Virus record (IMG/VR): IMGVR_UViG_3300018875_000009
Location: 1 to 43,168 of that record
Reading direction: 5' to 3' (one strand)
DNA: 43,168 bases
From: a virus
Of this stretch, positions 5,040-43,168 are shown piece by piece (positions within the stretch are counted from its first letter, which is position 1; each line of letters starts with the position of its first letter). The translations under genes were made by a program, and so were the position numbers. Under the pieces are notes generated by a model. It was not told where the DNA came from. It saw only the letters and a list, made by a program, of their open reading frames with translations, and ran no database searches.

Positions 5040-5046
5040 CAGCCCT

Positions 5047-7084: not shown

Positions 7085-7097
7085 TCTCTCGCTGACA
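7085..7097 (-). repeat. Orphan inverted copy of the early-leader motif TGTCAGCGAGAGA, followed by SD-like GAAGGGGAAGG (7075-7085)
   Basis: The reverse complement of 7075-7097 reads GTGTCAGCGAGAGAAGGGGAAGG. No credible downstream minus-strand ORF. Confidence 0.6.
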
Positions 7098-7114
7098 CGG
7101 TGAAGGTTGGTGCG

Positions 7115-7146
7115 ACGGCCCCCGCTTCGGCGGGGGCCGTTTTCGT
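7115..7146 (+). terminator. Intrinsic terminator after the nucleotide-metabolism operon
   Basis: 11-bp GC stem (ACGGCCCCCGC / GCGGGGGCCGT), TTCG loop, then TTTTCG. Confidence 0.8.
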
Positions 7147-7176
7147 ATGCCCTGATCCTAGCATTTGATCCGGCCC

Positions 7177-7232
7177 GTTTAAACGGTTGACACACGTTCC
7201 AAATGACAGTAACGTTCTTCCTGTCAGCGAGA
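7177..7232 (+). promoter_or_regulatory. Early promoter cassette A: GTTTAAAC 7177-7184, -35 TTGACA 7187-7192, 17-nt spacer containing CCAAATGACAG, -10 TAACGT 7210-7215, leader TGTCAGCGAGA 7222-7232
   Basis: Hexamers and spacing read directly. The same architecture recurs about 10 times. Confidence 0.7.
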
Positions 7233-7274
7233 CGGACGCCGGAACGGCCGGCTTCCGGAGAGAAGGGGAAGAAC

Positions 7275-7931
7275 ATGCGAGAGATCACCCGCGAAGAGTG
7301 GCTTCACCTGGCTATCGAAGCCCTGCGCCCGGAGTTCGAGAAGATCGAGTTCCCGCTTCCCGAGAAGATTCATGTCAGCGTGGGCTTCGGCTACGGCGCT
7401 AAGCGCGAGTCGGCGAAGATCCTCGGCCAGTGCTGGGCGCGTCGGGTTTCCGAGGACGGCGTGAACCACATCTTCATCAGCCCCGAGCTTTCCGACGAAG
7501 CCCGCGTTCTCGACGTGCTGATTCATGAGCTGGTGCATGCGGCTGACGACTGCATGAGCGGCCACAAGGGGGCCTTCGCGAAGGCCGCTAAGGCTCTCGG
7601 CCTCACCGGGAAGATGACCGCCACGGTGGCCACCCCGGAACTGACCGAAAAGCTCCGGGAGTTGGCTAAGGCCCTCGGCCCCTACGCTCACGCCACCCTG
7701 TACCCCATGGGCAAGCCGATTCAGCCGAGGGAAGAGCCGAAGCCGGAAGACCCGGAGACCCCGGAAGAGCCCCCGGTTTCGTCCGGCCCGAAGAAGCAGG
7801 GAACCCGCATGATCAAGGTTGCCTGCAAGCCGGATTGCGGGTGCGGCGGGTACGTGGTCCGCACTACCGCGAAGTGGCTCGAAGTCGGAATGCCGATCTG
7901 CCCCATGGGAACGGTCATGGAACTTGCCTGA
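7275..7931 (+). CDS. SprT-like zinc metalloprotease
   Basis: HELVH (HExxH) in an SprT-like context (ILGQCW...IHELVHAADD...GHKGAFAK), with a C-terminal Cys cluster. SD GAAGGGGAAG lies upstream of ATG 7275. Confidence 0.65.
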   Translation: MREITREEWLHLAIEALRPEFEKIEFPLPEKIHVSVGFGYGAKRESAKILGQCWARRVSEDGVNHIFISPELSDEARVLDVLIHELVHAADDCMSGHKGAFAKAAKALGLTGKMTATVATPELTEKLRELAKALGPYAHATLYPMGKPIQPREEPKPEDPETPEEPPVSSGPKKQGTRMIKVACKPDCGCGGYVVRTTAKWLEVGMPICPMGTVMELA

Positions 7932-7943
7932 CAGCCCCTCACG

Positions 7944-7974
7944 CGGCCCCCTTCGGGGGGCCGTTCGTGTTTCC
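7944..7974 (+). terminator. Intrinsic terminator
   Basis: CGGCCCCC / GGGGGCCG stem, TTCG loop, T-rich tail. Confidence 0.75.
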
Positions 7975-7985
7975 GGGCCTGATCC

Positions 7986-8042
7986 AAGCTGTCATTTGAC
8001 ATGTCGTGTTTAAACGCTGTAACTTCTTCCCTGTCAGCGAGA
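7986..8042 (+). promoter_or_regulatory. Early promoter cassette B: AAGCTGTCATTTGACA, -35 TTGACA 7996-8001, 18-nt spacer with GTTTAAAC 8008-8015, -10 TAACTT 8020-8025, leader TGTCAGCGAGA 8032-8042
   Basis: Read directly. Confidence 0.7.
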
Positions 8043-8065
8043 CACAAACCCGAAGGGGAAGACCA

Positions 8066-8506
8066 GTGCAGACCATGAAGATTTCCGAGACGGCCAACGT
8101 CGCCGACTCGAAGGGCGTGTTCCTGTTCGGCGGGAAGGCCGCCGGTCGGAAGGGGCCGAAGAAGGATCTGGTGCCGGTCAAGGTCGAGCTTCACGCTCGG
8201 GGTGTGGCGAAGCTCGTCAACGCCGAGGACGGTTCCGAGGTTCTTCACTCCCGCGTAGGCACGGTCGTCTTCGCCGGTCCCGTGAACGGCAAGCCGGCCG
8301 AGGCCGAGGGCAAGCCGAAGCGGCCCCGAAAGAAGGCCGTGAAGGCCCCTGAGAAGGCCGAGAAGGCGAAGGTCGAGGAGAAGCCCCAGGCCCCCGCTAA
8401 GCGGCCCGGAAAGGCCCCCGCGAACTTCGTAGACCTGGCCCGGTCGGCGAACACTGAAGCGGCCCGCCGCTACTGGCAGAGGGTTGTAGACCAGTACGAA
8501 GGCTGA
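8066..8506 (+). CDS. Hypothetical protein with a Lys/Pro/Ala-rich basic C-terminal half
   Basis: GTG 6 nt after SD GAAGGGGA (ATG 8075 is the alternative). KPKRPRKKAVKAPEKAEKAK tail. Confidence 0.55.
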   Translation: MQTMKISETANVADSKGVFLFGGKAAGRKGPKKDLVPVKVELHARGVAKLVNAEDGSEVLHSRVGTVVFAGPVNGKPAEAEGKPKRPRKKAVKAPEKAEKAKVEEKPQAPAKRPGKAPANFVDLARSANTEAARRYWQRVVDQYEG

Positions 8507-8517
8507 CCGCTCCAAAC

Positions 8518-8550
8518 GGCCCCCGCTTCGGCGGGGGCCTTCTTCGTCTC
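8518..8550 (+). terminator. Intrinsic terminator
   Basis: GGCCCCCGC / GCGGGGGCC stem, TTCG loop, TTCTTCGTCTC tail. Confidence 0.75.
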
Positions 8551-8551
8551 G

Positions 8552-8609
8552 GAAGCTGTGATTTGGAATCTGCGTTTAAACGTGCTACGTTTCTCCTGTC
8601 AGCGAGAGA
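8552..8609 (+). promoter_or_regulatory. Early promoter cassette C: GAAGCTGTGATTTGGAA, -35 TTGGAA 8563-8568, 17-nt spacer with GTTTAAAC 8574-8581, -10 TACGTT 8586-8591, leader TGTCAGCGAGAGA 8597-8609
   Basis: Read directly. Confidence 0.7.
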
Positions 8610-8649
8610 CACCGGGAAAGGCCCGGTGCACAACCTGAAGGGGAAGACA

Positions 8650-8841
8650 ATGAACGTTTCCGGCGAGTGGGTCATCCTCGGTCACGGCCGTTCCGAGAAG
8701 GACGTTTACATGGGTCCGGGTACCTACTCGGAGATTGCCGAAGTCGTTCAGCTGTGGAACGACACTCACACCGAGCGTGAGCAGCGCGGGGAGGCCCCGC
8801 GCGGTTCTCTCCAGCGCTTCTACATGAAGCGCGTGGGCTAA
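8650..8841 (+). CDS. Hypothetical protein (63 aa)
   Basis: ATG after SD GAAGGGGAAG. Flanked by its own promoter cassette and terminator. Confidence 0.5.
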   Translation: MNVSGEWVILGHGRSEKDVYMGPGTYSEIAEVVQLWNDTHTEREQRGEAPRGSLQRFYMKRVG

Positions 8842-8854
8842 CCGCTCACCCCAA

Positions 8855-8886
8855 CCCCCCGCTTCGGCGGGGGGTTTCCTGTTTCT
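8855..8886 (+). terminator. Intrinsic terminator
   Basis: CCCCCCGC / GCGGGGGG stem, TTCG loop, TTTCCTGTTTCT tail. Confidence 0.8.
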
Positions 8887-8897
8887 CGACTCAGACC

Positions 8898-8955
8898 GTT
8901 TACACGCTTGCGCTCGATTCCAAATGACAGTATCGTTTCCCTTGTCAGCGAGAGA
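8898..8955 (+). promoter_or_regulatory. Early promoter cassette D: GTTTACAC 8898-8905, -35 TTGCGC 8908-8913, 17-nt spacer containing CCAAATGACAG 8920-8930, -10 TATCGT 8931-8936, leader TGTCAGCGAGAGA 8943-8955
   Basis: Read directly. Confidence 0.65.
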
Positions 8956-8994
8956 AGGGGGGCCGGAAGGCCCGGCCCCCGGAAGGGAAACGCA

Positions 8995-9102
8995 ATGCAC
9001 TTCGGAGACCCGCGCTTCAAGCTCGTCTGTAAGTGGCACAAGGACTGCGACGGAAACGTTCGCCAGGCCCACCGGTTCGAGTGGGTGAAGGTCGAGAAGT
9101 AG
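8995..9102 (+). CDS. Hypothetical mini-protein (35 aa, Cys/His-containing)
   Basis: ATG after SD GGAAGGGAAA and a leader hairpin. Has its own promoter and terminator. Very short, so uncertain. Confidence 0.35.
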   Translation: MHFGDPRFKLVCKWHKDCDGNVRQAHRFEWVKVEK

Positions 9103-9108
9103 CCCCGA

Positions 9109-9139
9109 GGGCGGCCCGAAAGGGCCGCCCTTCTTCTTT
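9109..9139 (+). terminator. Intrinsic terminator
   Basis: GGGCGGCCC / GGGCCGCCC stem, GAAA loop, TTCTTCTTT tail. Confidence 0.8.
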
Positions 9140-9144
9140 GCCCC

Positions 9145-9200
9145 GAAGCTAAACTTGAAATGGTATCGCTTCAGATGCTAGATTCCCAATGTCAGCGAGA
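9145..9200 (+). promoter_or_regulatory. Early promoter cassette E: GAAGCTAAACTTGAAA, -35 TTGAAA 9155-9160, 18-nt spacer, -10 TAGATT 9179-9184, leader TGTCAGCGAGA 9190-9200
   Basis: Read directly. Confidence 0.65.
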
Positions 9201-9228
9201 AACGGCCTTCGGGCCGGAAGGGAATCCT

Positions 9229-9885
9229 GTGCAGCGAACCGATAAGGCCGCCGCTTCCGTCGTTGCGGGCATTGCGGCGGGTGCCTTCACCCTCTCCTAC
9301 GAAGCTCTTCGGAACGTCTACCTGGGGAGCGCCGGAAACGGTGACCTCTCCCCCATCTACCCCCTGATAGTCGAAGGGTTTGTCACGGTGGCCGTGTGGG
9401 TGGCCTACCGGCTTCGTGACTACGGCTGGAAGGCCACGGCCTACCCGTGGACCCTGGCGGCCCTCTTCTTCGCCTACTCGCTGTGGTCGAACGCCCTCCC
9501 GGACACCGTTCCGGCCCCGGTCATCCTTGGCGTTCCCTCGGTTGCCGTCCCCCTGGCCGTCCATCTCTTCACGCACCTTCTGAAGAAGCGTGAGCCCGTG
9601 GGGGCCGAGCTGGTCGCCGAGCTGGTCGCCGAGGGCGGCCAGGACGACGAAGAGCCCCTGTCCGATGACCCGTGGCCGGCCTGGGAGCCCCCGGCGGTTC
9701 AGGCCCCCATCTTCGCGGCCTCGGTCGAGAAGATTCCCAGCGTCACGGCGGCCACGGATTCCAGCGCCATGGTCCGCGCCTGGGCGCGTCAGAACGGCTA
9801 CGCCGTGAAGGACACCGGACGCATCCCGGATGCCGTCCTGAAGGCTTACGCGAAGGCTCACGGAGGGGAGTTGGTCACCCCTTGA
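9229..9885 (+). CDS. Membrane protein (DUF2637-like N-terminal helices) with a C-terminal Lsr2-type DNA-binding domain
   Basis: GTG after SD GGAAGGGA. Three or four hydrophobic helices. C-terminus VRAWARQNGYAVKDTGRIPDAVLKAYAKAH parallels the Lsr2 C-terminus encoded at 10020-10352. Confidence 0.65.
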   Translation: MQRTDKAAASVVAGIAAGAFTLSYEALRNVYLGSAGNGDLSPIYPLIVEGFVTVAVWVAYRLRDYGWKATAYPWTLAALFFAYSLWSNALPDTVPAPVILGVPSVAVPLAVHLFTHLLKKREPVGAELVAELVAEGGQDDEEPLSDDPWPAWEPPAVQAPIFAASVEKIPSVTAATDSSAMVRAWARQNGYAVKDTGRIPDAVLKAYAKAHGGELVTP

Positions 9886-10019
9886 AGCTCGGGTGGTGCA
9901 TGACGGGGCATCACGGCACCTGCCCCGTCCGCACGGTAAGTGGAATCGCTTGTGGCTGTAGTTGCCACGCTGGTAAGAAGTCCAACGTAATCGAACTCTT
10001 CCCGAAGAAGGAAAACGCC

Positions 10020-10352
10020 ATGGCTCAGAAGGTCGAAGTGAAGCTGATTGACGACCTCGACGGTTCCGAGGCGACTCAGACCGTCCTGTTCGCCCTCGAC
10101 GGGAAGACGTACGAGATCGACCTGAACGACGGCCACGCGGCCGAACTCCGCGACGCCCTGGCCCCGTACCTCGGGGCGGCCCGGAAGGTCTCTGGCGCCC
10201 GTGGGGGCGTTCGCCGGATCGGGTCGGCGAAGCCCGCTGAAGACTCGGGCACGATCCGGGAATGGGCGCGACAGAACGGCTACGAGGTGAGCGACCGGGG
10301 CCGCGTGCCCGCGAGCGTCCGTGAGGCGTACGAGAAGGCGAAGGCCGCCTGA
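10020..10352 (+). CDS. lsr2: Lsr2-family nucleoid-associated protein
   Basis: N-terminus MAQKVEVKLIDDLDGSEATQTVLFALDGKTYEIDL. C-terminus IREWARQNGYEVSDRGRVPASVREAY (RGR motif). SD GAAGGAAAA upstream. An in-frame ATG at 9900 would add a Cys-rich extension. Confidence 0.85.
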   Translation: MAQKVEVKLIDDLDGSEATQTVLFALDGKTYEIDLNDGHAAELRDALAPYLGAARKVSGARGGVRRIGSAKPAEDSGTIREWARQNGYEVSDRGRVPASVREAYEKAKAA

Positions 10353-10372
10353 GCGGCGACCAGCTCGACTAC

Positions 10373-10400
10373 GGCCCCCGCTTCGGCGGGGGCCTTCTTC
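10373..10400 (+). terminator. Intrinsic terminator (first of a tandem pair)
   Basis: GGCCCCCGC / GCGGGGGCC stem, TTCG loop, TTCTTC tail. Confidence 0.75.
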
Positions 10401-10430
10401 ATGCCCAACAAGCCCTAGGAAGCCCTGTAC

Positions 10431-10462
10431 GGCCCCCGTCCCTGCGGGGGCCTTCTCTGTGT
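10431..10462 (+). terminator. Second tandem terminator-like hairpin
   Basis: GGCCCCCG / CGGGGGCC stem, 6-nt loop, TTCTCTGTGT tail. Confidence 0.6.
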
Positions 10463-10554
10463 CCGCACGCGTCCTGAACGGCCCTGTACGGCCCGCACAG
10501 CCCTTCCGCGGCCCCCTGGCCGGCCATCCGGTTCCGCGCACTCCCGCACCCTCG

Positions 10555-10600
10555 CAAGCTGTGATCTGGAACCTGTGTAAACGGGTGGCCCTGATCACTC
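10555..10600 (+). promoter_or_regulatory. Degenerate (probably decayed) cassette copy: CAAGCTGTGATCTGGAA + GTGTAAAC, with no usable -10
   Basis: Aligns with cassette C, but the -35 is CTGGAA, the palindrome is GTAAAC and the -10 position reads GCCCTG. Confidence 0.5.
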
Positions 10601-10609
10601 ACGTATAGC

Positions 10610-10639
10610 TTGCGCGCACACTCCAAATGTAAGTAACGT
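10610..10639 (+). promoter_or_regulatory. Promoter of the ORF-free region: -35 TTGCGC 10610-10615, 18-nt spacer containing CCAAATGTAAG, -10 TAACGT 10634-10639
   Basis: Same architecture as cassettes A, D and G, but the downstream leader motif is absent. Confidence 0.55.
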
Positions 10640-10645
10640 CGCTCC

Positions 10646-11110
10646 CGCACGGCTGATCTTGGCCGTGGCCGCGTACGACGGCCCCTCGGATGGCACCGGG
10701 GGGAAACGACATGCCAAGGGAGAGCGGCCCCAGGAAACCGCCCTGCGGCCCCCGAGTGACGACCGGGGGAGTCCAGACCAGTCGGGAGTAAGAGAACGGC
10801 TCTCCCTCACCAAAAGACCGACCCCGGTTGCCTCGGGAGGTAGAGAACGAACGGCATACCGAGTGACGAACAGACCGGGTGAAGGCAGGCCCGGACCGGT
10901 GGCCCCGCAGAGGGGTCGGGCATGCGGCCCCTAGCTTCGATCACACATCCCGGCCCTGCGGTGAGAGTAATTCCCTCAACACCGGTTCTGAAGGCGACGA
11001 CCGCGACGGGCGTACCGGAGAGAATCCCCTAGAGCGTGAGTAAGCCCCTTGGGGGCTCTTTAACTTGCGCTCTAGGGGGGTTCACTAGCTCCCCCCGCTC
11101 GGGGCACCCG
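10646..11110 (+). ncRNA. Candidate structured non-coding transcript (unclassified family)
   Basis: Own promoter. No ORF with an SD or coding-type GC3. Dense hairpins, including an 11-bp perfect long-range stem 11026-11036 / 11068-11078. Internal repeats GAGTGACGA x2 and AGAGAACG x2. Confidence 0.35.
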
Positions 11111-11167
11111 GAGCCTGGGAAAAGAGCAAGACGAAGAACAACAGAACAACCCAACCACCTAAGCCAC

Positions 11168-11215
11168 TAGACAGCCATTCCAAATGACAGTATGGTTTCC
11201 CCTGTCAGCGAGAGA
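11168..11215 (+). promoter_or_regulatory. Early promoter cassette G: -35 TAGACA 11168-11173, 17-nt spacer containing CCAAATGACAG 11180-11190, -10 TATGGT 11191-11196, leader TGTCAGCGAGAGA 11203-11215
   Basis: Read directly. Confidence 0.7.
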
Positions 11216-11237
11216 AGCGACAAGGAAGGGCGCACCA

Positions 11238-11435
11238 GTGGCGAAGGTTCGTAGGACCCCGGAAGGTCTGGCCGAGGCAATCAAGGCAGCAGGGTTCAAG
11301 GTCGAGCGACGGAATCACGGATGGCTGTGCTTCCCGGACGACAAGACGAAGCCTGCCGAATGGATCAGCCGGAACACGGGAGGCAGGGGCCAGAGGAACA
11401 ATGAGGCCGTAGCGAGAAGGTTCGGGGTTCTGTAA
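11238..11435 (+). CDS. Hypothetical protein (65 aa)
   Basis: GTG after SD AAGGAAGGG, in frame with ORF 11184-11435. Confidence 0.5.
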   Translation: MAKVRRTPEGLAEAIKAAGFKVERRNHGWLCFPDDKTKPAEWISRNTGGRGQRNNEAVARRFGVL

Positions 11436-11445
11436 CCTCCCCCAC

Positions 11446-11499
11446 GGGGGCCGGGCGACCGGCCCCCTTCACCGTGTCAGCGAGGAAGAAGGTTTAAAC
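11446..11499 (+). promoter_or_regulatory. Hairpin + leader motif GTGTCAGCGAG (11474-11484) + SD + GTTTAAAC (11492-11499), with no recognisable promoter
   Basis: GGGGGCCGG/CCGGCCCCC hairpin, then TTCACC-GTGTCAGCGAGGAAGAAGGTTTAAACC-ATG. Confidence 0.5.
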
Positions 11500-11500
11500 C

Positions 11501-11803
11501 ATGCGTGAGTATCAGGGCGTTGTGCGGGTGAGGCACCAGGGAAAGAACCTGGCCGAGTCCCCCGACCAGCTCGACGACGTGACCGGCGCTCTGGTCGAGT
11601 ACGGGGCCACGGCGCAGATGGGCGACGGATGGACCGAGTGGACCATGACCGTGCGCGTGCCGACCCTGTACGACGTTGCGGCCGTGGCCGGCCGAACCGT
11701 GCGCGACGCGTACGAAAACGCGGGATGGTCCGTAACCCTGGTGCGCGTGGACGCGTGGCAGGTAGCCGAGTGGGAGCACGCGAAGGGCTTGACCGACGAG
11801 TGA
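11501..11803 (+). CDS. Hypothetical protein (100 aa)
   Basis: ATG after a purine-rich SD. High GC3. Confidence 0.55.
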   Translation: MREYQGVVRVRHQGKNLAESPDQLDDVTGALVEYGATAQMGDGWTEWTMTVRVPTLYDVAAVAGRTVRDAYENAGWSVTLVRVDAWQVAEWEHAKGLTDE

Positions 11804-11807
11804 CCGA

Positions 11808-11835
11808 GGGCCGGGAGACCGGCCCTTTCCCTTTA
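11808..11835 (+). terminator. Intrinsic terminator
   Basis: GGGCCGG / CCGGCCC stem, GAGA loop, TTTCCCTTTACC tail. Confidence 0.7.
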
Positions 11836-11839
11836 CCTC

Positions 11840-11898
11840 GAAGCTGTCATTTGAAATCTCGTTTAAACGGTGCTACCGTCTCCCTTGTCAGCGAGAGA
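11840..11898 (+). promoter_or_regulatory. Early promoter cassette H: GAAGCTGTCATTTGAAA, -35 TTGAAA 11851-11856, 17-nt spacer with GTTTAAAC 11861-11868, -10 TACCGT 11874-11879, leader TGTCAGCGAGAGA 11886-11898
   Basis: Read directly. Confidence 0.7.
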
Positions 11899-11934
11899 AG
11901 CCCCCGGCAACGGGGGCGAGAGAAGGGAAGGCCA

Positions 11935-12117
11935 ATGGCCGTTTCGCTCCACAAGGGAGTTCACCGGTGGGTTCACTTCTACGAGGAGAACCTGACCTTC
12001 TGCCGCTTCTGCGGAACCGTCCTCGACATGGGCGACTCCCCCGCTAGCGACGACTGCACCCCCCTGCATGACGCGCACTGCGCTTGCGACCGGTGCCGAG
12101 AGGTTCGGAACCGCTAG
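11935..12117 (+). CDS. Hypothetical Cys-rich protein (60 aa)
   Basis: ATG after SD GAGAAGGGAAGG and a leader hairpin. CRFCG...CACDRC motifs. Confidence 0.45.
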   Translation: MAVSLHKGVHRWVHFYEENLTFCRFCGTVLDMGDSPASDDCTPLHDAHCACDRCREVRNR

Positions 12118-12126
12118 CGAAACCGA

Positions 12127-12158
12127 GGGGCCGGGAAACCGGCCCCTTCTTCGTTTCC
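12127..12158 (+). terminator. Intrinsic terminator
   Basis: GGGGCCGG / CCGGCCCC stem, GAAA loop, TTCTTCGTTTCC tail. Confidence 0.8.
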
Positions 12159-12160
12159 CT

Positions 12161-12220
12161 GAAGCTGTCATTTGACACGTAGCGTTTAAACGTCGTAGAG
12201 TTTCCCTTGTCAGCGAGAGA
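12161..12220 (+). promoter_or_regulatory. Early promoter cassette I: GAAGCTGTCATTTGACA, -35 TTGACA 12172-12177, 18-nt spacer with GTTTAAAC 12184-12191, -10 TAGAGT 12196-12201, leader TGTCAGCGAGAGA 12208-12220
   Basis: Best match in the window to a sigma-70/HrdB-type promoter. Confidence 0.75.
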
Positions 12221-32673: not shown

Positions 32674-32748
32674 TGGGGCGCACTGCGGGATTCGAACCCG
32701 CGACGCCTCCCGGAAGGGGAGGAGTTTTAGCCGCTAAACTAAGTGCGC
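32674..32748 (-). tRNA. tRNA-Glu(UUC)-like gene with a non-canonical anticodon loop (CCUUCCG) and an encoded CCA
   Basis: Hand-folded cloverleaf: acceptor GCGCACU/AGUGCGC, D arm GUUU-AGCGGCUA-AAAC, anticodon arm CCUCC-CCUUCCG-GGAGG, T arm GCGGG-UUCGAAU-CCCGC. Confidence 0.6.
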
Positions 32749-32804
32749 GTTCCCTCCGTCAGGTGATCAGCCCGAGTTTCAGGAACAGGGGAGCTACCCC
32801 ACTG

Positions 32805-32877
32805 TGGGAACGGAGGGAATCGAACCCCCGACGCACCGGATTTCACCCGGTAGCTCTTCCGACTGAGCTACGTTCCC
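32805..32877 (-). tRNA. tRNA-Phe(GAA)
   Basis: Hand-folded cloverleaf: acceptor GGGAACG/CGUUCCC, D arm GCUC-AGUCGGAA-GAGC, anticodon arm ACCGG-GUGAAAU-CCGGU, T arm GGGGG-UUCGAUU-CCCUC. No encoded CCA. Confidence 0.8.
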
Positions 32878-33432: not shown

Positions 33433-33647
33433 GTCTGCAACCTCTCTCGGTCTGAAATTCCCCTCTCTGGGAAACGGTTCTGTAATTCGCGCGGAGTCAT
33501 CCGCGCTGGTCAACGGCCTACACGCTTGCTCACTCCGTTATTCGGAGCAATCCGAATTCCCACGAACTCAGGCGAACCCCCGCGCGTTCACAAAGCAGGA
33601 AGGGCGCGGGTGCGGGGAAGGCTCCCCGGAAAGTTTCAGATCCCCCC

Positions 33648-33661
33648 TCCGGCTCATTTGA
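33648..33661. repeat. Perfect 14-bp palindrome GGCTCATTTGAGCC in the terS-upstream non-coding region
   Basis: Read directly. Shares the CATTTGA core with the dispersed motif. Confidence 0.7.
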
Positions 33662-33821
33662 GCCGAGAATCTGAGCCAGCTAGCTTGACAATGCTTGATC
33701 TGGTGTGTTCTCGGCTACGCCGTTGGCATGGCTGGGATCACTTCGGTTAGGGAGTGAGAGCCGGACCATGCGAGCTGGTGAGGGATTGAAGCAGGGGCGG
33801 GGTGCTGCCTTGACGGCACCC

Positions 33822-34145
33822 CTAGTAGCGTTTCCCTTTTCGGTAGTCGTTCTCTCGTCTTGTGTTGCATGATCGACAGAGAACCCGAGTGTTATCGAGG
33901 GTGTTGGTTCCACCATCCTTCAAAGGAAGGATGTGGTCTCCGGTTAGGTCTTTGTCTGTACCGCAGAAAGAACAGTAGGGCTGAAGTCTGATGGCTTCTG
34001 CCCTTACCTTCTGCCATTGGTAGTCGTACAGCCCTGGCCTTCGAGTGTTCTTACTCTTGTGCTTTCGTGGTGCGGTAGCACATTGAGCACAGGGCACCCC
34101 GAGGGGGTGCAGCCTTTTGTGGCGGGGGCACATGCTGTAAGGCAT
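33822..34145 (-). CDS. HNH endonuclease (packaging-associated position)
   Basis: CAQC...CSFCG...GDHILPLKDGGTNTLDNTRVLCRSCN. SD GAGAGGGGGTGG. Confidence 0.85.
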   Translation of the reverse strand: MPYSMCPRHKRLHPLGVPCAQCATAPRKHKSKNTRRPGLYDYQWQKVRAEAIRLQPYCSFCGTDKDLTGDHILPLKDGGTNTLDNTRVLCRSCNTRRENDYRKGKRY

Positions 34146-34477
34146 GGGGCCACCCCCTCTCTAGGGGGGTACCCCCTTGGTCTTCATTCTGTATAGACCT
34201 GTTAAGGGCCAGGGCTTCTAATGCCCTGGCCTTAGATAGCTTCCTTATAGGGGCGGCCTCGGGAGGGCCGCCCTTCTGCTACTGCTCTCTTCCGTTCGCA
34301 GTAGCTCTAGAGCTATCTCTGTCCCCCGATCCCCCCGGCTTCCGTTCGCTCGCTCCGCTCTCTCACTACAGCCGACCCCCTTACCCCCTAGCTGTCGCCA
34401 GGGGTAGACCTGTTGGTTCGGCAGAGGCCCCACAACGGGGCCTCTAACCTGGGGTTCCTTGATCCCGCCAGGGCAGC

Positions 34478-34551
34478 GAAGCTATGTTTTGGAATGCCAG
34501 CGAGGAACGGCCCAGGAGGGGCCGGGAGCTAGCAGAGAAGCCCGTTTAAAC
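34478..34551 (+). promoter_or_regulatory. Dispersed motif GAAGCTATGTTTTGGAAT (34478-34495) fused to leader-like GCCAGCGAGGAA, then a hairpin and GTTTAAAC (34544-34551)
   Basis: Read directly. First element of the + arm. Confidence 0.55.
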
Positions 34552-34571
34552 CGCCGAGGAAAGAGGCTGCT

Positions 34572-34993: not shown

Positions 34994-35208
34994 TCGAGCA
35001 ACTAGGGGAACTTCAGACCGGCCTTCTCCTGTTCGGCGGGTTCTTCGCTCTTATCGCCTTTATCTGCCTCGCCCTCGAAGACCTCTGGCATTCGTGGAAG
35101 GAACGGAACCCCAATGAGCGATTGGGAAACGGTCGACCTCGGCACGCTCGACGCCGAGGAAAGAGAGCGCATCCTTCGCGACCTTCATGGAGTAGAGAAC
35201 GACTGTGA
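34990..35208 (+). CDS. Small membrane protein with a basic tail
   Basis: GTGA coupling and one clear TM helix. GC3 drops in the last 30 codons, where ORF 35114-35212 overlaps. Confidence 0.45.
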   Translation: MIEQLGELQTGLLLFGGFFALIAFICLALEDLWHSWKERNPNERLGNGRPRHARRRGKRAHPSRPSWSRERL

Positions 35209-35212
35209 GTGA
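35114..35212 (+). CDS. Possible 32-aa acidic mini-ORF overlapping the previous gene's tail
   Basis: ATG after SD GAAGGAACGG. Better GC3 than the overlapping frame. Confidence 0.3.
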   Translation: MSDWETVDLGTLDAEERERILRDLHGVENDCE

Positions 35213-35732
35213 ACGGGCTTCTACGGCCCCCCGCATCTTGGAGCTATGCGCCGGTTACGGCGGCCTGGGGATGGCCGTAGAAGCTCTAACGGGTGGCCGC
35301 GTTACTTGGGTGGCGGACAACGATCCGAATAAGGCCCTGATCCTGGAACGTCGCTTCCCTGGGGTGCCGAACCTCGGGGATATCACTCAAATCGACTGGG
35401 CGACGCTCGCTGAAGAGGGCGTAGAGATCATCACGGCCGGTTTTCCGTGCCAGGACATTTCGAATGCGGGGAAACGGGTTGGTATCGAAGGGTCGCGCTC
35501 GGGAATCTGGGCGAACGTCGCGGAAGCCGTTCGCGTTCTTCGACCGAAGCTCGTCTTCCTGGAAAACGTCTCCGCAATCCGAAGCCGAGGACTCTCCCGC
35601 GTACTCGGGGACTTGGCCGCGTGCGGGTATGACGCAGTCTGGACGTGCTATCGAGCTTCCGCCGCTGGCGCCCCCCACCACCGCGATAGGTGGTTTCTCG
35701 TTGCCGCTCCTGCCGACTCCAACGGCCGCTGA
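35205..35732 (+). CDS. C5 cytosine DNA methyltransferase, N-terminal part (motifs I-VIII)
   Basis: ELCAGYGGLG (motif I), GFPCQDIS (IV), VFLENV (VI), HHRDRWF (VIII). Confidence 0.85.
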   Translation: MSERASTAPRILELCAGYGGLGMAVEALTGGRVTWVADNDPNKALILERRFPGVPNLGDITQIDWATLAEEGVEIITAGFPCQDISNAGKRVGIEGSRSGIWANVAEAVRVLRPKLVFLENVSAIRSRGLSRVLGDLAACGYDAVWTCYRASAAGAPHHRDRWFLVAAPADSNGR

Positions 35733-37061: not shown

Positions 37062-37331
37062 TCACGGCTGCTGTTGCTCGGGGTTCCAATCTTCGATTGC
37101 CACAACCGCGTGCTTGCTGGCGGGGGCCTTCCGCGGCTTCGGGGCCTTCCGGTCGGTCCCCAGGTCATACAGCTCGACCAGGGGCGCCTTATGCTCGCCG
37201 CACAGGTCCACGTCCTTCGGCTTGCCCCCTCGGCTGACCGTGAAGCCCTCGACCTCTTCGTCACTGCCGCACACGTCGCACCGAGCTAGCTCGATCAGTT
37301 CTCTAACCACGGCCCGCCCTCCTCTCGTCAA
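37062..37331 (-). CDS. Small protein resembling a Cys-substituted Lsr2 N-terminal domain, with a basic PKPRKAP tail
   Basis: By eye, CDVCGSDEEVEGFTVSRGGKPKDVDLCGEHKAPLVELY aligns with Lsr2 DDLDGSEATQTVLFALDGKTYEIDLNDGHAAELRDAL. Lies downstream of int. Confidence 0.45.
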   Translation of the reverse strand: MTRGGRAVVRELIELARCDVCGSDEEVEGFTVSRGGKPKDVDLCGEHKAPLVELYDLGTDRKAPKPRKAPASKHAVVAIEDWNPEQQQP

Positions 37332-38418
37332 GCGGGATGATCTTACCGCCGTCCTGTCCAGCGGTCAGGAACGGCTGTCCCTTCATCATCTGCGCGTACT
37401 TCTGCCGCTCGATATCCAATCCTAGGTACCGCTCGGTCGTGCTCACCTCCTTGTGGTTCAGGGCCGCCTGCACGATCCGAAGGGCGTAGTCATGGCCCTT
37501 GTGGACCAGGGAGTCATAGAGGATGCGCGCGAAGGAACGGCGAAGCGTGTGCCACGCGTCCCCAGGGTCAAGCTCGATGCCGGCCTTCTCGGCAACGTCC
37601 TTGATGATGTAGGTCGGGTGAGTGATCCACCCCTCGGGGTTGAGTCGGCGAACCGGGTCCGGTACCTGGGCGTGACCGGCTATGAACTTGCGCTTGTGGC
37701 ACACCGGGAACAGGTAGTAGGACCGCTTCAGCGTCCCGACCTCTTCCGTGTAGATGCGAAGCCACTCCCGAAGCTCCCGCTCAAGGTCGAGCGACAGGGG
37801 AACCGTTACCTCTTCCTTCGTCTTCGGCAGGTACACGTACAGCTCCCCCTTGTTGAAGGACACGTCTCGCACCCGCATCTGAACCGCCTCGGAGATGCGA
37901 AGGCCCGTGTTCGCCAGGAAGGCGATCAAGGCACGGTCGCGGGGGTAGTCCGCCGCTTCGATCAAGAGAAGCACTTCTTCCCGCGTCATGCGGTAGCGGT
38001 TCCGGTTGGTCTGGGTGCTCTTCTCCTTCAGGCCCTCGGTCAGTTGCTCCATGGTCCGGAGCGTCCATTCACGGCGCTCACAGAAGCGGAAGAAGCTACG
38101 CATGGTGGCCCGATAGTTGGCCAGGGTGGTGGACCCGCACGTCTCATGAAGGCCGCCAGGGCCGTAGAAGAAGGCTTCGATGTGCTGCGCCCGGAGGGTG
38201 CTTACGTGACAGTCGCCGACATGCACGGCGAACCGTCGAAAGAGGCTCCGAAGGTAGTGCAACGGCCGGCCGTGCCCTACTTGGGCTTCCCGTTGCTCGA
38301 CGTACAGCTTCCCCGCGTAGCTTACTTTTGGAGTTGCAGCCCTAGCCATTCCGAATGTGCCCTTCGTCCGTTCAGTCGACCGCCGTACGGCAGCGCTGAC
38401 CAGCGGCTTCCCAGGCAT
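37303..38418 (-). CDS. int: Tyrosine integrase
   Basis: C-terminal catalytic region: ...GLRISEA..., WHTLRRSFA, ...ALNHKEVSTTERYLG (R..HxxR..Y). Confidence 0.9.
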   Translation of the reverse strand: MPGKPLVSAAVRRSTERTKGTFGMARAATPKVSYAGKLYVEQREAQVGHGRPLHYLRSLFRRFAVHVGDCHVSTLRAQHIEAFFYGPGGLHETCGSTTLANYRATMRSFFRFCERREWTLRTMEQLTEGLKEKSTQTNRNRYRMTREEVLLLIEAADYPRDRALIAFLANTGLRISEAVQMRVRDVSFNKGELYVYLPKTKEEVTVPLSLDLERELREWLRIYTEEVGTLKRSYYLFPVCHKRKFIAGHAQVPDPVRRLNPEGWITHPTYIIKDVAEKAGIELDPGDAWHTLRRSFARILYDSLVHKGHDYALRIVQAALNHKEVSTTERYLGLDIERQKYAQMMKGQPFLTAGQDGGKIIPLDERRAGRG

Positions 38419-40343: not shown

Positions 40344-40592
40344 ATGACCGCCTTCCGTTCCGAGGACACTCGCACCCTGAACTTCACCGACGTTGACGGC
40401 CGCCCGGTCAGCGTGCGCCCCATCTATGACTCTGGCCTCGGCCGGAACGTCATCGAGCTGGTCGTTCACGGCGCGACCGTGCGCCTGTCCAACGGCATAG
40501 TTCCCAAGTTCGTGGACGGCGTGACCACGGCGGCCTTCCTCGGGGAGCTGGACAACGTGACCACGGGCAACCCGACCCCCGCCGGGGCGTGA
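40344..40592 (+). CDS. Hypothetical protein (82 aa)
   Basis: ATG after the GAGAGAGAAC purine tract, in frame with ORF 40293-40592. Confidence 0.55.
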   Translation: MTAFRSEDTRTLNFTDVDGRPVSVRPIYDSGLGRNVIELVVHGATVRLSNGIVPKFVDGVTTAAFLGELDNVTTGNPTPAGA

Positions 40593-41422
40593 CCGTGGGC
40601 GAACCGATAGCTCACCGGTCCGTATCGCAGTATTCGAGCTTCGTACGGTGCGGAGAGGCTTACCGGCTTGAGAAGGTCGCCAGGGCTCCCCAGGCTCAGG
40701 CCGCGTGGTTCATCCAAGGGACCGCCTACCACGAAGCCGTAGAGAAGTGGGAGCGCTCGAACCGGGCCTTCGGCCCCGACCGCATGGCCGAGTGGTTCGA
40801 AGAAGCCTGGGAACGGGAGATGGCCGCCGCCCTGGCCGTCGAGCCGGACGTGTCCCGGTGGCTCACCGGCGGAGTCACGAAGCCTGAGACCGACATCAAG
40901 AACCGCCGGAAACGTGGCCGTGATCAGGTAGAAGCGTACTTCGAGTACGCGATAGAAGCCCCTGAACGCATCTGGGAGCCGATAGAGGGACAGCCGGCCA
41001 TCGAGCTTCCGTTCACGCTGAATCTCGACGGAATCGAGGTCCGCGGGTTCATTGATCAGGTGATCGAGTATCCGGACGGACACCTTCGAGTAAGGGACCT
41101 GAAGACCGGAACCAAGCTCCCTGACACGGCTTTTCAGCTAGCCATCTACGACCACGCCCTGAACGACATGTTCGGCGTGAAACCCGGATTCGGGGATTTC
41201 TTCATGGCGAAGAACAACGCCCCGACCGACCCTTGGAATCTTCAGGATTACACCTTGGAGAAGGTGACCCGGTGGTTCCGCAACATGGATAAGGCCGTAC
41301 GTCTCGGCCTGTTCCTTCCCAACCCTGGCGACGCGTGCCGTACCTGTACGGTCCGGCGATTCTGCGACTTCAACGGAGTCGACGCCCGCCAATACCCCTA
41401 CGAAGAGAGTGTGAATGTCTGA
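40589..41422 (+). CDS. Cas4-family / RecB-like PD-(D/E)XK exonuclease with a 4-Cys cluster
   Basis: N-terminal Cys (FVRCGE), GFIDQV...VRDLKTG nuclease core, C-terminal CRTCTVRRFC. Confidence 0.78.
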   Translation: MTVGEPIAHRSVSQYSSFVRCGEAYRLEKVARAPQAQAAWFIQGTAYHEAVEKWERSNRAFGPDRMAEWFEEAWEREMAAALAVEPDVSRWLTGGVTKPETDIKNRRKRGRDQVEAYFEYAIEAPERIWEPIEGQPAIELPFTLNLDGIEVRGFIDQVIEYPDGHLRVRDLKTGTKLPDTAFQLAIYDHALNDMFGVKPGFGDFFMAKNNAPTDPWNLQDYTLEKVTRWFRNMDKAVRLGLFLPNPGDACRTCTVRRFCDFNGVDARQYPYEESVNV

Positions 41423-42274: not shown

Positions 42275-43069
42275 TTGTACACGATTGTTCGAGCTAAGGG
42301 CGACGCCGGAAAGACCGGCGAACCCCTTCCTACCCTGTTCAAGACCTTCGCGGCGAATACTGTCCACTTCCGCCGAGGGCAATTCACGATCATCTCGGCG
42401 GCCCCCGGTGTCGGTAAGTCGGCCCTGAGCCTCTGCCTGGCCCTACACGCCCGCGTGCCCGCCTTCTATTTCAGCGCGGACACTGACCCGCAAACGATGT
42501 TCGTGCGGGCCGCAGCGAACGTCTCGGGCTGGTCGACCAGGGATATCGAGAACGCGCTAGAGCACGGCAACACGAAGGCCGTAGAAGCTCAGCTTGACGG
42601 GTTCGATCATCTTCGGTGGGACTTCACCGCAAGTCTCACGATTGATGACCTCGAAGCGGAGTTGAAGGCTTTCGCGGTCACCTATGGGGCCTGGCCGGAA
42701 CTGATCATCGTGGACAACCTGTCCAACGTCGTTCCGGACGCCGAGGGCGACAGCAACTCTTACGTCGCTCTGGAAAAGGTCTGTGAGTACCTGCACGAAC
42801 TTGCCCGCGAAACGGGCGCGTGCGTAGTCGCCCTGCACCACGTCAAGGGTGACAGCAACGACGGAAATAGCCCCGTGCCCCTGTCTCAGATCAAGGGGCA
42901 GATTGGCCGCGTGCCGGAAATGATCCTGACGCTTCACCGGATCGGGGACGACGGCTCTCGACAGATGGGCGTATCCGTCGTGAAGAACCGTACGGGAAAG
43001 GCTGACGCGTCCGGCGCGATGATCCTCTATCTCGATGCCGACATGGAGCGAATGAGGCTCACCGGATGA
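42275..43069 (+). CDS. DnaB-like / RecA-fold replicative helicase ATPase
   Basis: Walker A AAPGVGKSALSL, Walker B ELIIVDNL, LHHVKG sensor-like motif. Confidence 0.72.
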   Translation: MYTIVRAKGDAGKTGEPLPTLFKTFAANTVHFRRGQFTIISAAPGVGKSALSLCLALHARVPAFYFSADTDPQTMFVRAAANVSGWSTRDIENALEHGNTKAVEAQLDGFDHLRWDFTASLTIDDLEAELKAFAVTYGAWPELIIVDNLSNVVPDAEGDSNSYVALEKVCEYLHELARETGACVVALHHVKGDSNDGNSPVPLSQIKGQIGRVPEMILTLHRIGDDGSRQMGVSVVKNRTGKADASGAMILYLDADMERMRLTG

Positions 43070-43168
43070 TCGAGCTAGACGTGATCGGCACCCCTGCCCC
43101 CCAGGGCAGTAAGAGGCACGTTGGCGGGGGCCGAATGGTGGAGTCCTCGAAGAAGGTCAAGCCGTGGC
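43042..43168. repeat. Second copy of the 127-nt terminal overlap (includes the first 103 nt of rusA)
   Basis: Identical to 1-127. Confidence 0.95.

Follow-up and report, generated by a model that had tools for sequence, protein, structure and literature searches.

A candidate new large structured RNA in Streptomyces phages and prophages

Does a long gap without a credible gene in a viral genome hold a gene for a non-coding RNA, a decayed gene or a replication origin? The question was raised by the window analysed here, a 43,168-nt stretch covering positions 1 to 43,168 of the IMG/VR record IMGVR_UViG_3300018875_000009, in which an initial annotation made from the sequence alone proposed that an independently promoted, structured RNA of about 450 nt lies in the gap at 10353-11167, with an origin or decayed cassettes as alternatives. 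Our analysis supports the main proposal. The interval 10646-11117 (+) follows a conserved promoter, is better conserved than the neighbouring protein genes, matches no described RNA family in Rfam 15 and recurs in several groups of high-GC phages and prophages, so it looks like a new class of large phage RNA whose function is unknown.

The gap and its transcription unit

After the Lsr2-like gene (10020-10352), no ORF in the gap has gene-like composition. The ORF at 10659-10934 has a GC3 of 0.68, against 0.72-0.91 for the ORFs kept in our crude GC3-based gene map, and in that map this is the longest stretch without a credible gene; the other candidate, at 33.5-34.6 kb, holds an HNH endonuclease gene with low GC3. 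Two intrinsic terminator hairpins follow the Lsr2-like gene, the first at 10373-10394 (+) (GGCCCCCGC-TTCG-GCGGGGGCC, followed by TTCTTC), a unit that recurs at 7115 and 8516, and the second at 10431-10452 (+), an 86% copy of the first, and together they insulate the RNA unit from upstream transcription. The repeat GCCCTGTACGGCCC lies in the spacer 10400-10570, which is not conserved. The decayed cassette noted initially is real, yet it lies upstream of the RNA at about 10553-10600 (+), as a degenerate cassette-type element (AAGCTGTGATCTGGAA...GTGTAAACGG) whose -10 position is lost and of which GTGTAAACG is kept in relatives, as seen on alignment to three of them. The promoter of the RNA was confirmed at 10610-10639 (+), with a -35 TTGCGC (10610-10615), an 18-nt spacer and a -10 TAACGT (10634-10639); TTGC and AGTAACGT are kept in every relative whose sequence reaches that far. 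This host-type promoter shares TCCAAATG..AGTA with the early-gene promoters but lacks their TGTCAGCGAG leader.

In the absence of expression data, the transcript and its ends are inferred: the start of the structured RNA, about 472 nt at 10646-11117 (+), from the -10 position, and the end as the 3′ strand of a closing helix. The RNA is followed at 11118-11167 (+) by an unstructured, A/C-rich and U-poor tail (50% A, 30% C, 18% G, 2% T), which is a compositional outlier, since 18 of the 20 50-nt segments of the genome with T<=2 and G<=11 lie here. We infer that this tail is a candidate Rho-loading (rut) tract. No terminator-like site was found between 11083 and 11238, and the next unit, which is not part of the RNA, spans 11168-11435 (+) and comprises a promoter TAGACA-17-TATGGT (11168-11196), the leader TGTCAGCGAG (11203) and a 65-aa ORF (11238-11435) that always follows the RNA in this phage group. 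The 65-aa protein looked HicA-like by eye, yet Pfam at E<=10 and PHROGs at E<=0.01 gave nothing; it exists in only 14 clusters and also occurs without the RNA, so it is not an obligate partner.

Conservation and the predicted fold

The RNA is conserved in 17 related Streptomyces phage and prophage loci at 86-89% nucleotide identity, against 76-79% for the flanking genes. Against 15 relatives, its 5′ domain is 86.5% identical and its core 88.8%, whereas Lsr2 scores 76.4%, the 65-aa gene 79.0% and the next gene 78.1%. No ORF is conserved, as ORF ends differ in every relative, variable columns split 72/54/65 over the three codon phases, and gap runs have lengths mod 3 of 144 (1), 56 (2) and 11 (0). 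On a MAFFT alignment of 15 sequences, the curated structure has 111 pairs, of which 97.5% are kept, and 28 pairs show changes on both sides, against 12.1 +/- 1.8 in shuffles (0 of 500 reach the observed value) and 1-7 in slid controls. On a core alignment of 22 distinct sequences, 20 of 37 pairs change on both sides, against 11.0 +/- 1.8 for shuffles and 5-10 for slid controls. However, the 17 close relatives are 75-95% identical, so some covariation counts reflect shared ancestry, and the core alignment was fitted to the covariance model, which biases counts towards the structure. Many conserved U-G and G-U pairs (for example 440-500, 445-495 and 454-486) would be A-C mismatches on the other strand and fit only the + strand. 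Single-sequence folding is only weakly better than chance (z = -1.95 for the + strand and -0.81 for the - strand), and therefore the evidence for structure is comparative and not thermodynamic.

In the predicted fold, three 5′ hairpins at 10648-10702 (H1 10648-53/10662-67, H2 10668-71/10679-82 and H3 10683-89/10696-702, with the invariant loop AUGGCA) are absent from the short lineages L030, L040 and L042. H1, which covaries, and H2 supersede the helix 10661-66/10678-83 of the initial annotation. The 5′ strand of the closing helix (10710-10720, CAUGCC-AA-GGG) pairs with 11107-11117; it varies little within the family, yet cross-lineage covariation was read from the sequences of L040 (GCAC-AA-GGG/CCC-AAG-GUGC), L042 (CAC-AU-GGG/CCC-AAA-GUG) and L030 (UCGGGUG/CACCCGA). 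The 5′ domain at 10724-10860 contains hairpins H4-H8, of which H6 and H8 carry the duplicated, invariant loop motif UA(A)GAGAA..CGGC. The repeat AGAGAACG is real and conserved, being part of a 17-nt duplication at 10782-98 and 10833-49, while CCGAGTGACGA occurs twice in the window but is not kept as a repeat in relatives. In many relatives H8 holds an optional inserted hairpin capped by 4-nt loops of varying sequence, such as GAGA, UUCG and GCAA. The helix 10749-54/10764-69 and the hairpin 10784-10806 were both confirmed, with compensatory changes.

The most conserved part is the core domain at 10863-10983, for which a pseudoknot is proposed. It includes HA 10863-70/10936-44, HC 10874-80/10895-900, closing the loop GAAGGCAGGCCCGG, HB 10885-94/10950-59, in which this loop pairs with CCGGCCCUGC downstream to form the pseudoknot, H9 10901-06/10912-17 with loop GCAGA, H10 10918-21/10927-30 and H11 10960-66/10974-83 with loop UAAUUCC. 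HB and several other helices never vary, so they are proposed and not proven. HC, which covaries across lineages, was preferred to a local hairpin CCGGG/CCCGG around GGUGAAGG. Within the core, the 25-mer CGGGTGAAGGCAGGCCCGGACCGGT at 10876-10900 is identical in the window and its three closest viral relatives, and its central 20-mer was the seed that recovered the family. Further downstream, the long hairpin H13 (11022-11082) has a C-rich/G-rich base and 7 pairs with changes on both sides, the window carrying a fully compensated sequence variant of its stem; the stem 11026-36/11068-78, enclosing 11043-57, is also confirmed. It is followed at 11083-11117 by a C-rich, G-poor single strand (CUCCCCCCGCUC...) and the 3′ strand of the closing helix. 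The alternative "switch" helix 11075-80/11091-96 suggested initially is not conserved, as the C6 run reads CCACCC or CCGCCC in relatives. A candidate alternative helix between alignment columns 154-158 and 330-334 scored high in our scan, yet shared variation plus G-U tolerance explains it, and it conflicts with two better-supported helices. The RNAalifold pairing of columns 377-384 with 403-413 is uncertain, since in many relatives a local hairpin CGUAC-loop-GUACG competes with it and one relative breaks the long pairing.

Distribution of the RNA and absence of known families

A covariance model of the core found five divergent lineages (L028, L029, L030, L040 and L042) at E of 1e-6 to 1e-9, from unrelated phages, that keep this core with completely different helix sequences. 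Helix HA reads GUGAcGAA/UUCgaUCAC in the family, GUCGGUG..GCGUG/CACGCACCGAC in L028 and GAACAuCCAGGG/CCCUGGUGUUC in L030, the last of which shares no detectable protein with the window. The promoter-plus-RNA unit is an insertable module, being present in shortened form in unrelated phages and absent from a close relative (loci L032 and L033), where Lsr2 is followed by 141 bp and then the 65-aa gene, and where no model hit was obtained even with filters off. It is interesting to note that the RNA occurs as a prophage in culturable strains, namely Streptomyces antimicrobicus SMC 277, S. hintoniae DSM 41014 and S. cucumeris NEAU-Y11. Among cultured phages, blastn of the region and of the core found only Lsr2 genes and chance hits; a 31-nt, 87% match in Gordonia phages lies inside a 326-aa CDS on the other strand, where the model finds nothing. 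The structural region has no megablast match, and the best portal identity is 37-39%. Eight of the 20-mer hits in genomes and metagenomes, and two hits from a second pattern, were chance matches, the eight lying in coding sequence.

Searches of Rfam 15 gave only noise apart from tRNAs. At gathering thresholds the whole window gave only two tRNAs; at E<=10, the interval 10200-11400 gave nothing meaningful, with every hit far below its gathering score and the best, an "anti-hemB" hit at 23.5 bits, falling on the two upstream terminator hairpins; and at E<=1 the distant homologues L028, L029 and L030 gave nothing. These searches detected no known aptamer class, including no cobalamin hit despite a superficial AAGGGA..GAGUCCAGACC resemblance, and no 6S, RNase P, tmRNA, group I/II intron, HEARO or other large bacterial RNA, while ARAGORN found no tmRNA. 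Nor is there a tandem array of the kind expected of a type III toxin-antitoxin RNA (ToxI-like), only the two-copy 17-nt duplication.

Possible modes of action and comparison with known RNAs

We consider it almost certain that 10646-11117 (+) encodes a conserved, structured and functional RNA. Our best guess is that it acts in trans as a stable folded RNA, although this is no better than an even choice against a role in cis. It could be a stable scaffold, an RNA-protein particle, an RNA-only assembly or a catalyst, in the manner of the phage-borne GOLLD and ROOL RNAs. Its 3′ end may be made by Rho acting on the A/C-rich tail, or by trimming back to the closing helix, and because the promoter lacks the early-gene leader and operator-like sequences, the RNA may also be expressed from the prophage. 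No protein partner or target has been identified; a search for antisense targets in the phage genome found 94 complementary matches of 10 nt or more, against about 59 for shuffled RNA, none outstanding or conserved. Perhaps, and this remains tentative, the invariant pseudoknotted core is an active site or a binding pocket, the RNA being a new ribozyme, an RNA-only assembly or the largest known sensor RNA, controlling Rho-dependent read-through in phage early operons, and moving between unrelated actinobacterial phages as a self-contained promoter-plus-RNA module.

The main rival, which is possible though less favoured, is a very large cis-acting sensor or attenuator transcribed together with the downstream early genes, whose fold would decide whether RNA polymerase continues, either by exposing or hiding the C-rich Rho-loading tract or by making polymerase resistant to the many terminators downstream. 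Every other early cassette ends in an intrinsic terminator, whereas none follows the RNA in the window or in three divergent lineages, and a same-strand gene always follows within 10-250 nt, which fits co-transcription and a cis role at least as well as a free-standing RNA. Moreover, the downstream genes at 11.2-12.7 kb are each separated by terminators. In L030 the 3′ strand of the closing helix abuts AGGAGGAG and the ATG of a 46-aa zinc-finger ORF, and in L040 and L042 even longer tails of 135-171 nt with about 50% C run straight into a ribosome-binding site and a gene. Nonetheless, in the window and all 17 close relatives a complete promoter with its own leader sits between the RNA and the next gene, and the relative that lacks the RNA expresses that gene from the same promoter. 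At 300-470 nt with about 17 helices, the RNA also appears several times larger than known riboswitch or antitermination RNAs, we found no conserved alternative terminator/antiterminator or SD-sequestering pairing, and in L029 a terminator-like hairpin lies about 240 nt after the RNA.

The remaining readings are all unlikely. A pre-primer or origin RNA, forming a persistent RNA-DNA hybrid at its purine-rich end, would agree with a self-promoted structured transcript of about 500 nt, followed by a purine- and A-rich tract with almost no T, in the early region of the genome. Yet this alternative is weakened because the replication genes lie about 9 kb away around the genome junction (DnaB-like helicase at 42275-43069, PD-(D/E)XK nuclease at 40589-41422, RusA at 25-447 and primase at 696-1343) and because the constraint is on base pairing in the + strand. 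In addition, the gap holds no iterons or AT-rich unwinding element, no minus-strand promoter was found in it by the consensus scan, L030 has the RNA but no purine-rich tail, and the absence of the unit from a close relative is hard to reconcile with an essential origin. The suggestion that the RNA is a decoy, whose repeated GAGAACGG loops mimic the early mRNA leader and titrate a leader-binding factor, draws on the two invariant loop copies in H6 and H8 and on the GCGAGAGAAG contained in the early leaders, but it is not supported: the shared part is only a purine hexamer, the invariant leader TGTCAGCGAG has 12 exact copies in the genome and none in the RNA, the distant lineages keep GUAGAGA in only one hairpin, and no such factor is known. 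Least likely is a decayed or unusual protein-coding gene with helices incidental to high GC content. A 91-codon ORF (10659-10934) does exist, and the conserved ATG at 10690 in the invariant H3 loop, which starts a 33-codon ORF in the window, opens ORFs of 23-84 codons in all 15 aligned sequences; but frames as well as ends differ between relatives, there is no ribosome-binding site, and a sequence more conserved than real genes changes in a compensatory way in its helices.

Bacterial and phage RNAs of more than 300 nt with complex, covariation-supported folds are rare, and almost every class found so far has led to new biochemistry, as with RNase P, self-splicing introns, OLE, and the GOLLD and ROOL cages. 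The present RNA would be the first such large class tied to the early region of Streptomyces temperate phages, which could bear on how these phages control terminator-studded early operons or interact with host defences. The ColE1 RNA II primer would likewise be a self-promoted structured transcript of about 500 nt with 5′ hairpins, but the RNA described here is far from the replication genes, is dispensable in a close relative, shows no antisense RNA promoter and lacks the tail in L030. With Rho-dependent riboswitch leaders and the phage HK022 put antitermination RNA it seems to share a position just downstream of an early promoter and upstream of genes and terminators, the lack of a following intrinsic terminator, and a C-rich, G-poor unstructured tract after the fold, as at Rho-loading sites; it is, however, probably 4-7 times larger, has in this phage group a separate promoter before the next gene, shows no conserved alternative pairing and matches no known riboswitch or leader family. 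GOLLD RNA is also encoded by phages and prophages, several hundred nucleotides long, multi-branched, pseudoknotted and of unknown function. Yet there is no match to its Rfam model at any threshold tried, the present RNA is about 470 nt against more than 800, it occurs in the early region of Streptomyces-type phages, and it is not next to tRNA genes, as the two tRNAs of the window (tRNA-Glu and tRNA-Phe, 32674-32877) lie 21 kb away. Similarly, ROOL RNA is a large, pseudoknotted, phage- or prophage-borne RNA with no known protein partner and no known function (PMC12286853), but its Rfam model is not matched, hosts, sequence and fold differ, and the RNA described here has no tRNA-island context and is followed by an A/C-rich tail.

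The phage genome and the gap

The 43,168-base window is a complete temperate phage genome of Streptomyces type, whose first and last 127 bases (1-127 and 43042-43168) are identical, reflecting either a terminal repeat or a circular assembly overlap. It encodes a tyrosine integrase (37303-38418, minus strand), an amidase endolysin, a prohead protease, RusA, a Toprim primase, a class II ribonucleotide reductase, ThyX, a DnaB-like helicase, a PD-(D/E)XK nuclease and two Lsr2-type proteins. An HNH endonuclease gene (33822-34145, minus strand, GC3 0.59) lies within a stretch of lower G+C (33514-34571 and 35205-35732) in which no ORF has gene-like GC3; it is flanked by 300-430 nt without annotated function, and a C5 cytosine methylase gene lies just beyond. 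No cultured phage is close, as a megablast search with 22.5 kb found nothing and the portal protein is at best 37-39% identical to any phage in the collection examined.

The early region consists of small cassettes, each with a promoter, a fixed leader TGTCAGCGAG, a gene and a terminator. These cassettes were noted at 7088-12217, 32413 and 39343 (TGTCAGCGAG copies), and also at 5044, 7151, 8549, 11837, 12158, 39294 and 41851. Each has an upstream motif, GAAGCTGTCATTTGA (containing the palindrome TGTCA-NN-TGACA) or GTTTAAAC, a -10 of the form TAnnnT and an invariant transcript leader TGTCAGCGAGAGAA, of which 12 exact copies were found against 3.3 expected with one mismatch allowed. This looks like a shared operator or leader system, yet the promoter of the RNA lacks the leader.

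Directly upstream of the gap, two Lsr2-type genes lie in tandem; the first (9160-9885) encodes a DUF2637 membrane protein fused to an Lsr2 DNA-binding domain and the second (10020-10352) a full-length Lsr2, and their C-terminal domains are 71% identical at the DNA level over 90 nt. The gap that follows contains two terminator hairpins (10373-10394 and 10431-10452), about 150 nt of spacer that is not conserved in relatives, a degenerate cassette element at about 10553-10600, and the promoter described in the initial annotation, with TTGCGC (10610-15), an 18 nt spacer and TAACGT (10634-39). About 470 nt with no credible ORF come next, followed by a 50-nt A/C-rich tail and the promoter of the next gene at 11168-11196. 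The only sizeable ORF, 10659-10934, has a GC3 of 0.68, against 0.72-0.91 for the ORFs kept in our crude GC3-based gene map.

Conservation and predicted structure of the RNA

Relatives were recovered in three ways. A search with the protein encoded at 11501-11800 gave three viral contigs, scans with the invariant 20-mer GGTGAAGGCAGGCCCGGACC gave four more viral contigs, eight full-length Streptomyces prophage loci plus a truncated copy in S. regalis, and two metagenome contigs, while look-ups of homologues of the downstream 65-aa protein gave further contigs. In every close relative the order is Lsr2, the RNA region, the 65-aa gene, then the 100-aa gene. The 65-aa protein (11238-11435) is itself very conserved (75-94% identity), has no Pfam or PHROG match and exists in only 14 clusters among 5.8 billion proteins, all from this phage group. 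Against 15 relatives, the 5′ domain of the RNA is 86.5% identical and the core 88.8%, with the flanking genes at 76-79%. The promoter hexamers are kept as well, TTGC in the -35 and AGTAACGT around the -10 being present in all sequences that reach that far.

The region is not a protein gene. In a 15-sequence alignment, ORF boundaries differ from sequence to sequence, variable columns are spread 72/54/65 over the three codon phases, and gap runs have lengths mod 3 of 144 (1), 56 (2) and 11 (0). It is rather a structured RNA read from the + strand. RNAalifold predicted 118 pairs on this alignment, 28 of them with compensatory changes, which we curated into 111 pairs in 20 helices and counted on the same MAFFT alignment, not fitted to any structure. 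In total, 97.5% of cells pair, compared to 92.7 +/- 0.3% in 500 shuffles and 40-55% when the 3′ partners were slid by 1-3 columns, and 28 pairs are changed on both sides, compared to 12.1 +/- 1.8 in the shuffles (none reaches 28) and 1-7 in the slid controls. Many conserved pairs are U-G or G-U, which would be A-C mismatches in the complementary strand, so the constraint is on the + strand transcript. It is worth mentioning that the folding energy of the single sequence is only marginally better than that of shuffles (z = -1.95 for the + strand and -0.81 for the - strand), and the case therefore rests on comparison.

The predicted architecture starts with three 5′ hairpins (10648-53/10662-67, 10668-71/10679-82 and 10683-89/10696-702), after which a closing helix joins 10710-20 with 11107-17. 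Hairpins H4-H8 lie between 10724 and 10860, two of them carrying the duplicated, invariant loop motif UA(A)GAGAA..CGGC. They are followed by a core domain (10863-10983), a poorly defined linker, a long hairpin (11022-11082) and a C-rich single strand. Eleven of 15 relatives carry an extra small hairpin (GCCC-NNNN-GGG, with 4-nt loops of varying sequence such as GAGA, UUCG and GCAA) inserted in the H8 loop (alignment columns 225-235, between window 10847 and 10848), which the window lacks, and a second variable insert lies between the core and the long 3′ hairpin (columns 414-437). In the core, helix HA (10863-70/10936-44) encloses helix HC (10874-80/10895-900), whose 14-nt loop, GAAGGCAGGCCCGG, can pair with CCGGCCCUGC at 10950-59, just beyond HA, forming a pseudoknot (HB). 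As HB never varies, apart from two wobble changes and an occasionally unpaired terminal pair, it is proposed and not proven. HA also encloses two hairpins, one capped by the loop GCAGA, and a hairpin with the loop UAAUUCC follows.

Divergent lineages and mobility of the unit

The core is ancient and mobile. A covariance model of the core and two further pattern scans recovered five divergent lineages, represented by the contigs L028, L029, L030 (identical to L031), L040 (identical to L043) and L042, with E-values of 1e-6 to 1e-9. These lineages keep the invariant loop, its partner strand and the AAUYCCC loop, yet their helices have entirely different sequences. Helix HA reads GUGAcGAA/UUCgaUCAC or GUAGCUAG/CUAGCUAC in the family, GUCGGUG..GCGUG/CACGCACCGAC in L028 and GAACAuCCAGGG/CCCUGGUGUUC in L030. 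Similarly, HC reads ACCgGGU/ACCGGU in the family, GUGGU/ACCAC in L028, GAUCG/CGAUC in L040 and GUACG/CGUAC in L042, while the closing helix reads CAUGCC-AA-GGG/CCC-GA-GGCAUG in the family, UCGGGUG/CACCCGA in L030, GCAC-AA-GGG/CCC-AAG-GUGC in L040 and CAC-AU-GGG/CCC-AAA-GUG in L042. On the 22 distinct core sequences, 20 of 37 pairs change on both sides, against 11.0 +/- 1.8 for shuffles and 5-10 for slid controls, although this alignment was fitted to the model, which favours the structure. L030 shares no detectable protein with the window. The short lineages (about 270-340 nt) lack the 5′ hairpins and H4-H6, and the short L030 version carries in its 3′ part (about 7660-7640, minus strand) a second copy of the core motif, CCGGUGAAGGCAG, which suggests an internal duplication.

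The unit is an insertable module. The most divergent homologue of the 65-aa gene lies in two contigs of a related phage (L032 and L033), where the Lsr2 gene is followed directly by that gene after 141 bp holding a terminator and a cassette promoter (L032 2097-2237). With filters off, the model finds nothing in these contigs, which represent a natural deletion or pre-insertion state. In S. regalis NRRL 3151 (contig L024, 3886-4185), only the 3′ half of the RNA survives, outside any phage synteny and next to a DDE-transposase-like ORF, and it is probably a truncated remnant.

Possible roles and comparison with known RNAs

No intrinsic terminator follows the fold. Instead, there is an A/C-rich tract with almost no U (11118-11167), a strong compositional outlier in a genome of 63% G+C; of the 20 50-nt windows in the genome with T<=2 and G<=11, 18 lie here. 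The tract is kept in all but one close relative. A/C-rich or C-rich tracts with 2-4% T follow the RNA in several lineages, and in L040 (1890-2060) and L042 (626-760, minus strand) the tract is much longer (135-171 nt, about 50% C) and runs into the ribosome-binding site of the next gene, while in L030 the closing helix abuts the ribosome-binding site of a 46-aa zinc-finger ORF. A C-rich, G-poor, unstructured tract resembles a Rho-loading site, and we infer that it may act as one.

Our analysis confirmed the gap and supported the main interpretation of the initial annotation, which had proposed a structured ncRNA with its own promoter. The unit is separate, conserved, promoter-driven and exchangeable between phages, and is inferred to produce an RNA under strong selection for a specific closed fold with a near-invariant pseudoknotted core. 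As to how it works, we favour, with no more than moderate confidence, a trans-acting stable RNA (scaffold, particle, assembly or catalyst) with its 3′ end set by Rho or by trimming to the closing helix, given its size and complexity, its own promoter, the separate promoter of the next gene and its dispensability in a relative. Nonetheless, a cis-acting leader governing read-through into the terminator-studded downstream genes remains the main alternative, for which the missing terminator, the rut-like tract and the tight coupling to a downstream gene in three lineages argue. A primer or origin role, also raised in the initial annotation as an origin, seems unlikely, being weakened by the distance from the replication genes, the absence of iterons and the relative that lacks the unit. 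A coding role, and the suggestion in the initial annotation that the RNA could act as a decoy for a leader-binding factor, have little support.

Finally, the RNA matches nothing described in the resources searched. Rfam 15 at gathering thresholds finds only the two tRNAs at 32.7 kb, and there is no meaningful hit at E<=10 on the region or at E<=1 on the distant homologues. Literature searches found no description of such an RNA in Streptomyces phages, and the 50-genome ncRNA survey that we checked mentions only unrelated Streptomyces motifs. We regard it as a new family of large structured phage RNA; large ornate phage RNAs of unknown function are already known, but the fold and sequence of this one are not. 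The closest known RNAs are GOLLD and ROOL, both of which are large, pseudoknotted, phage- or prophage-borne RNAs of unknown function, and GOLLD also has a conserved 3′ region and a variable 5′ region (PMC12286853). Yet the RNA identified here fails their models and lacks their tRNA neighbourhood, as the two phage tRNA genes, tRNA-Glu(UUC) and tRNA-Phe(GAA) at 32674-32877 (minus strand), lie 21 kb from it.
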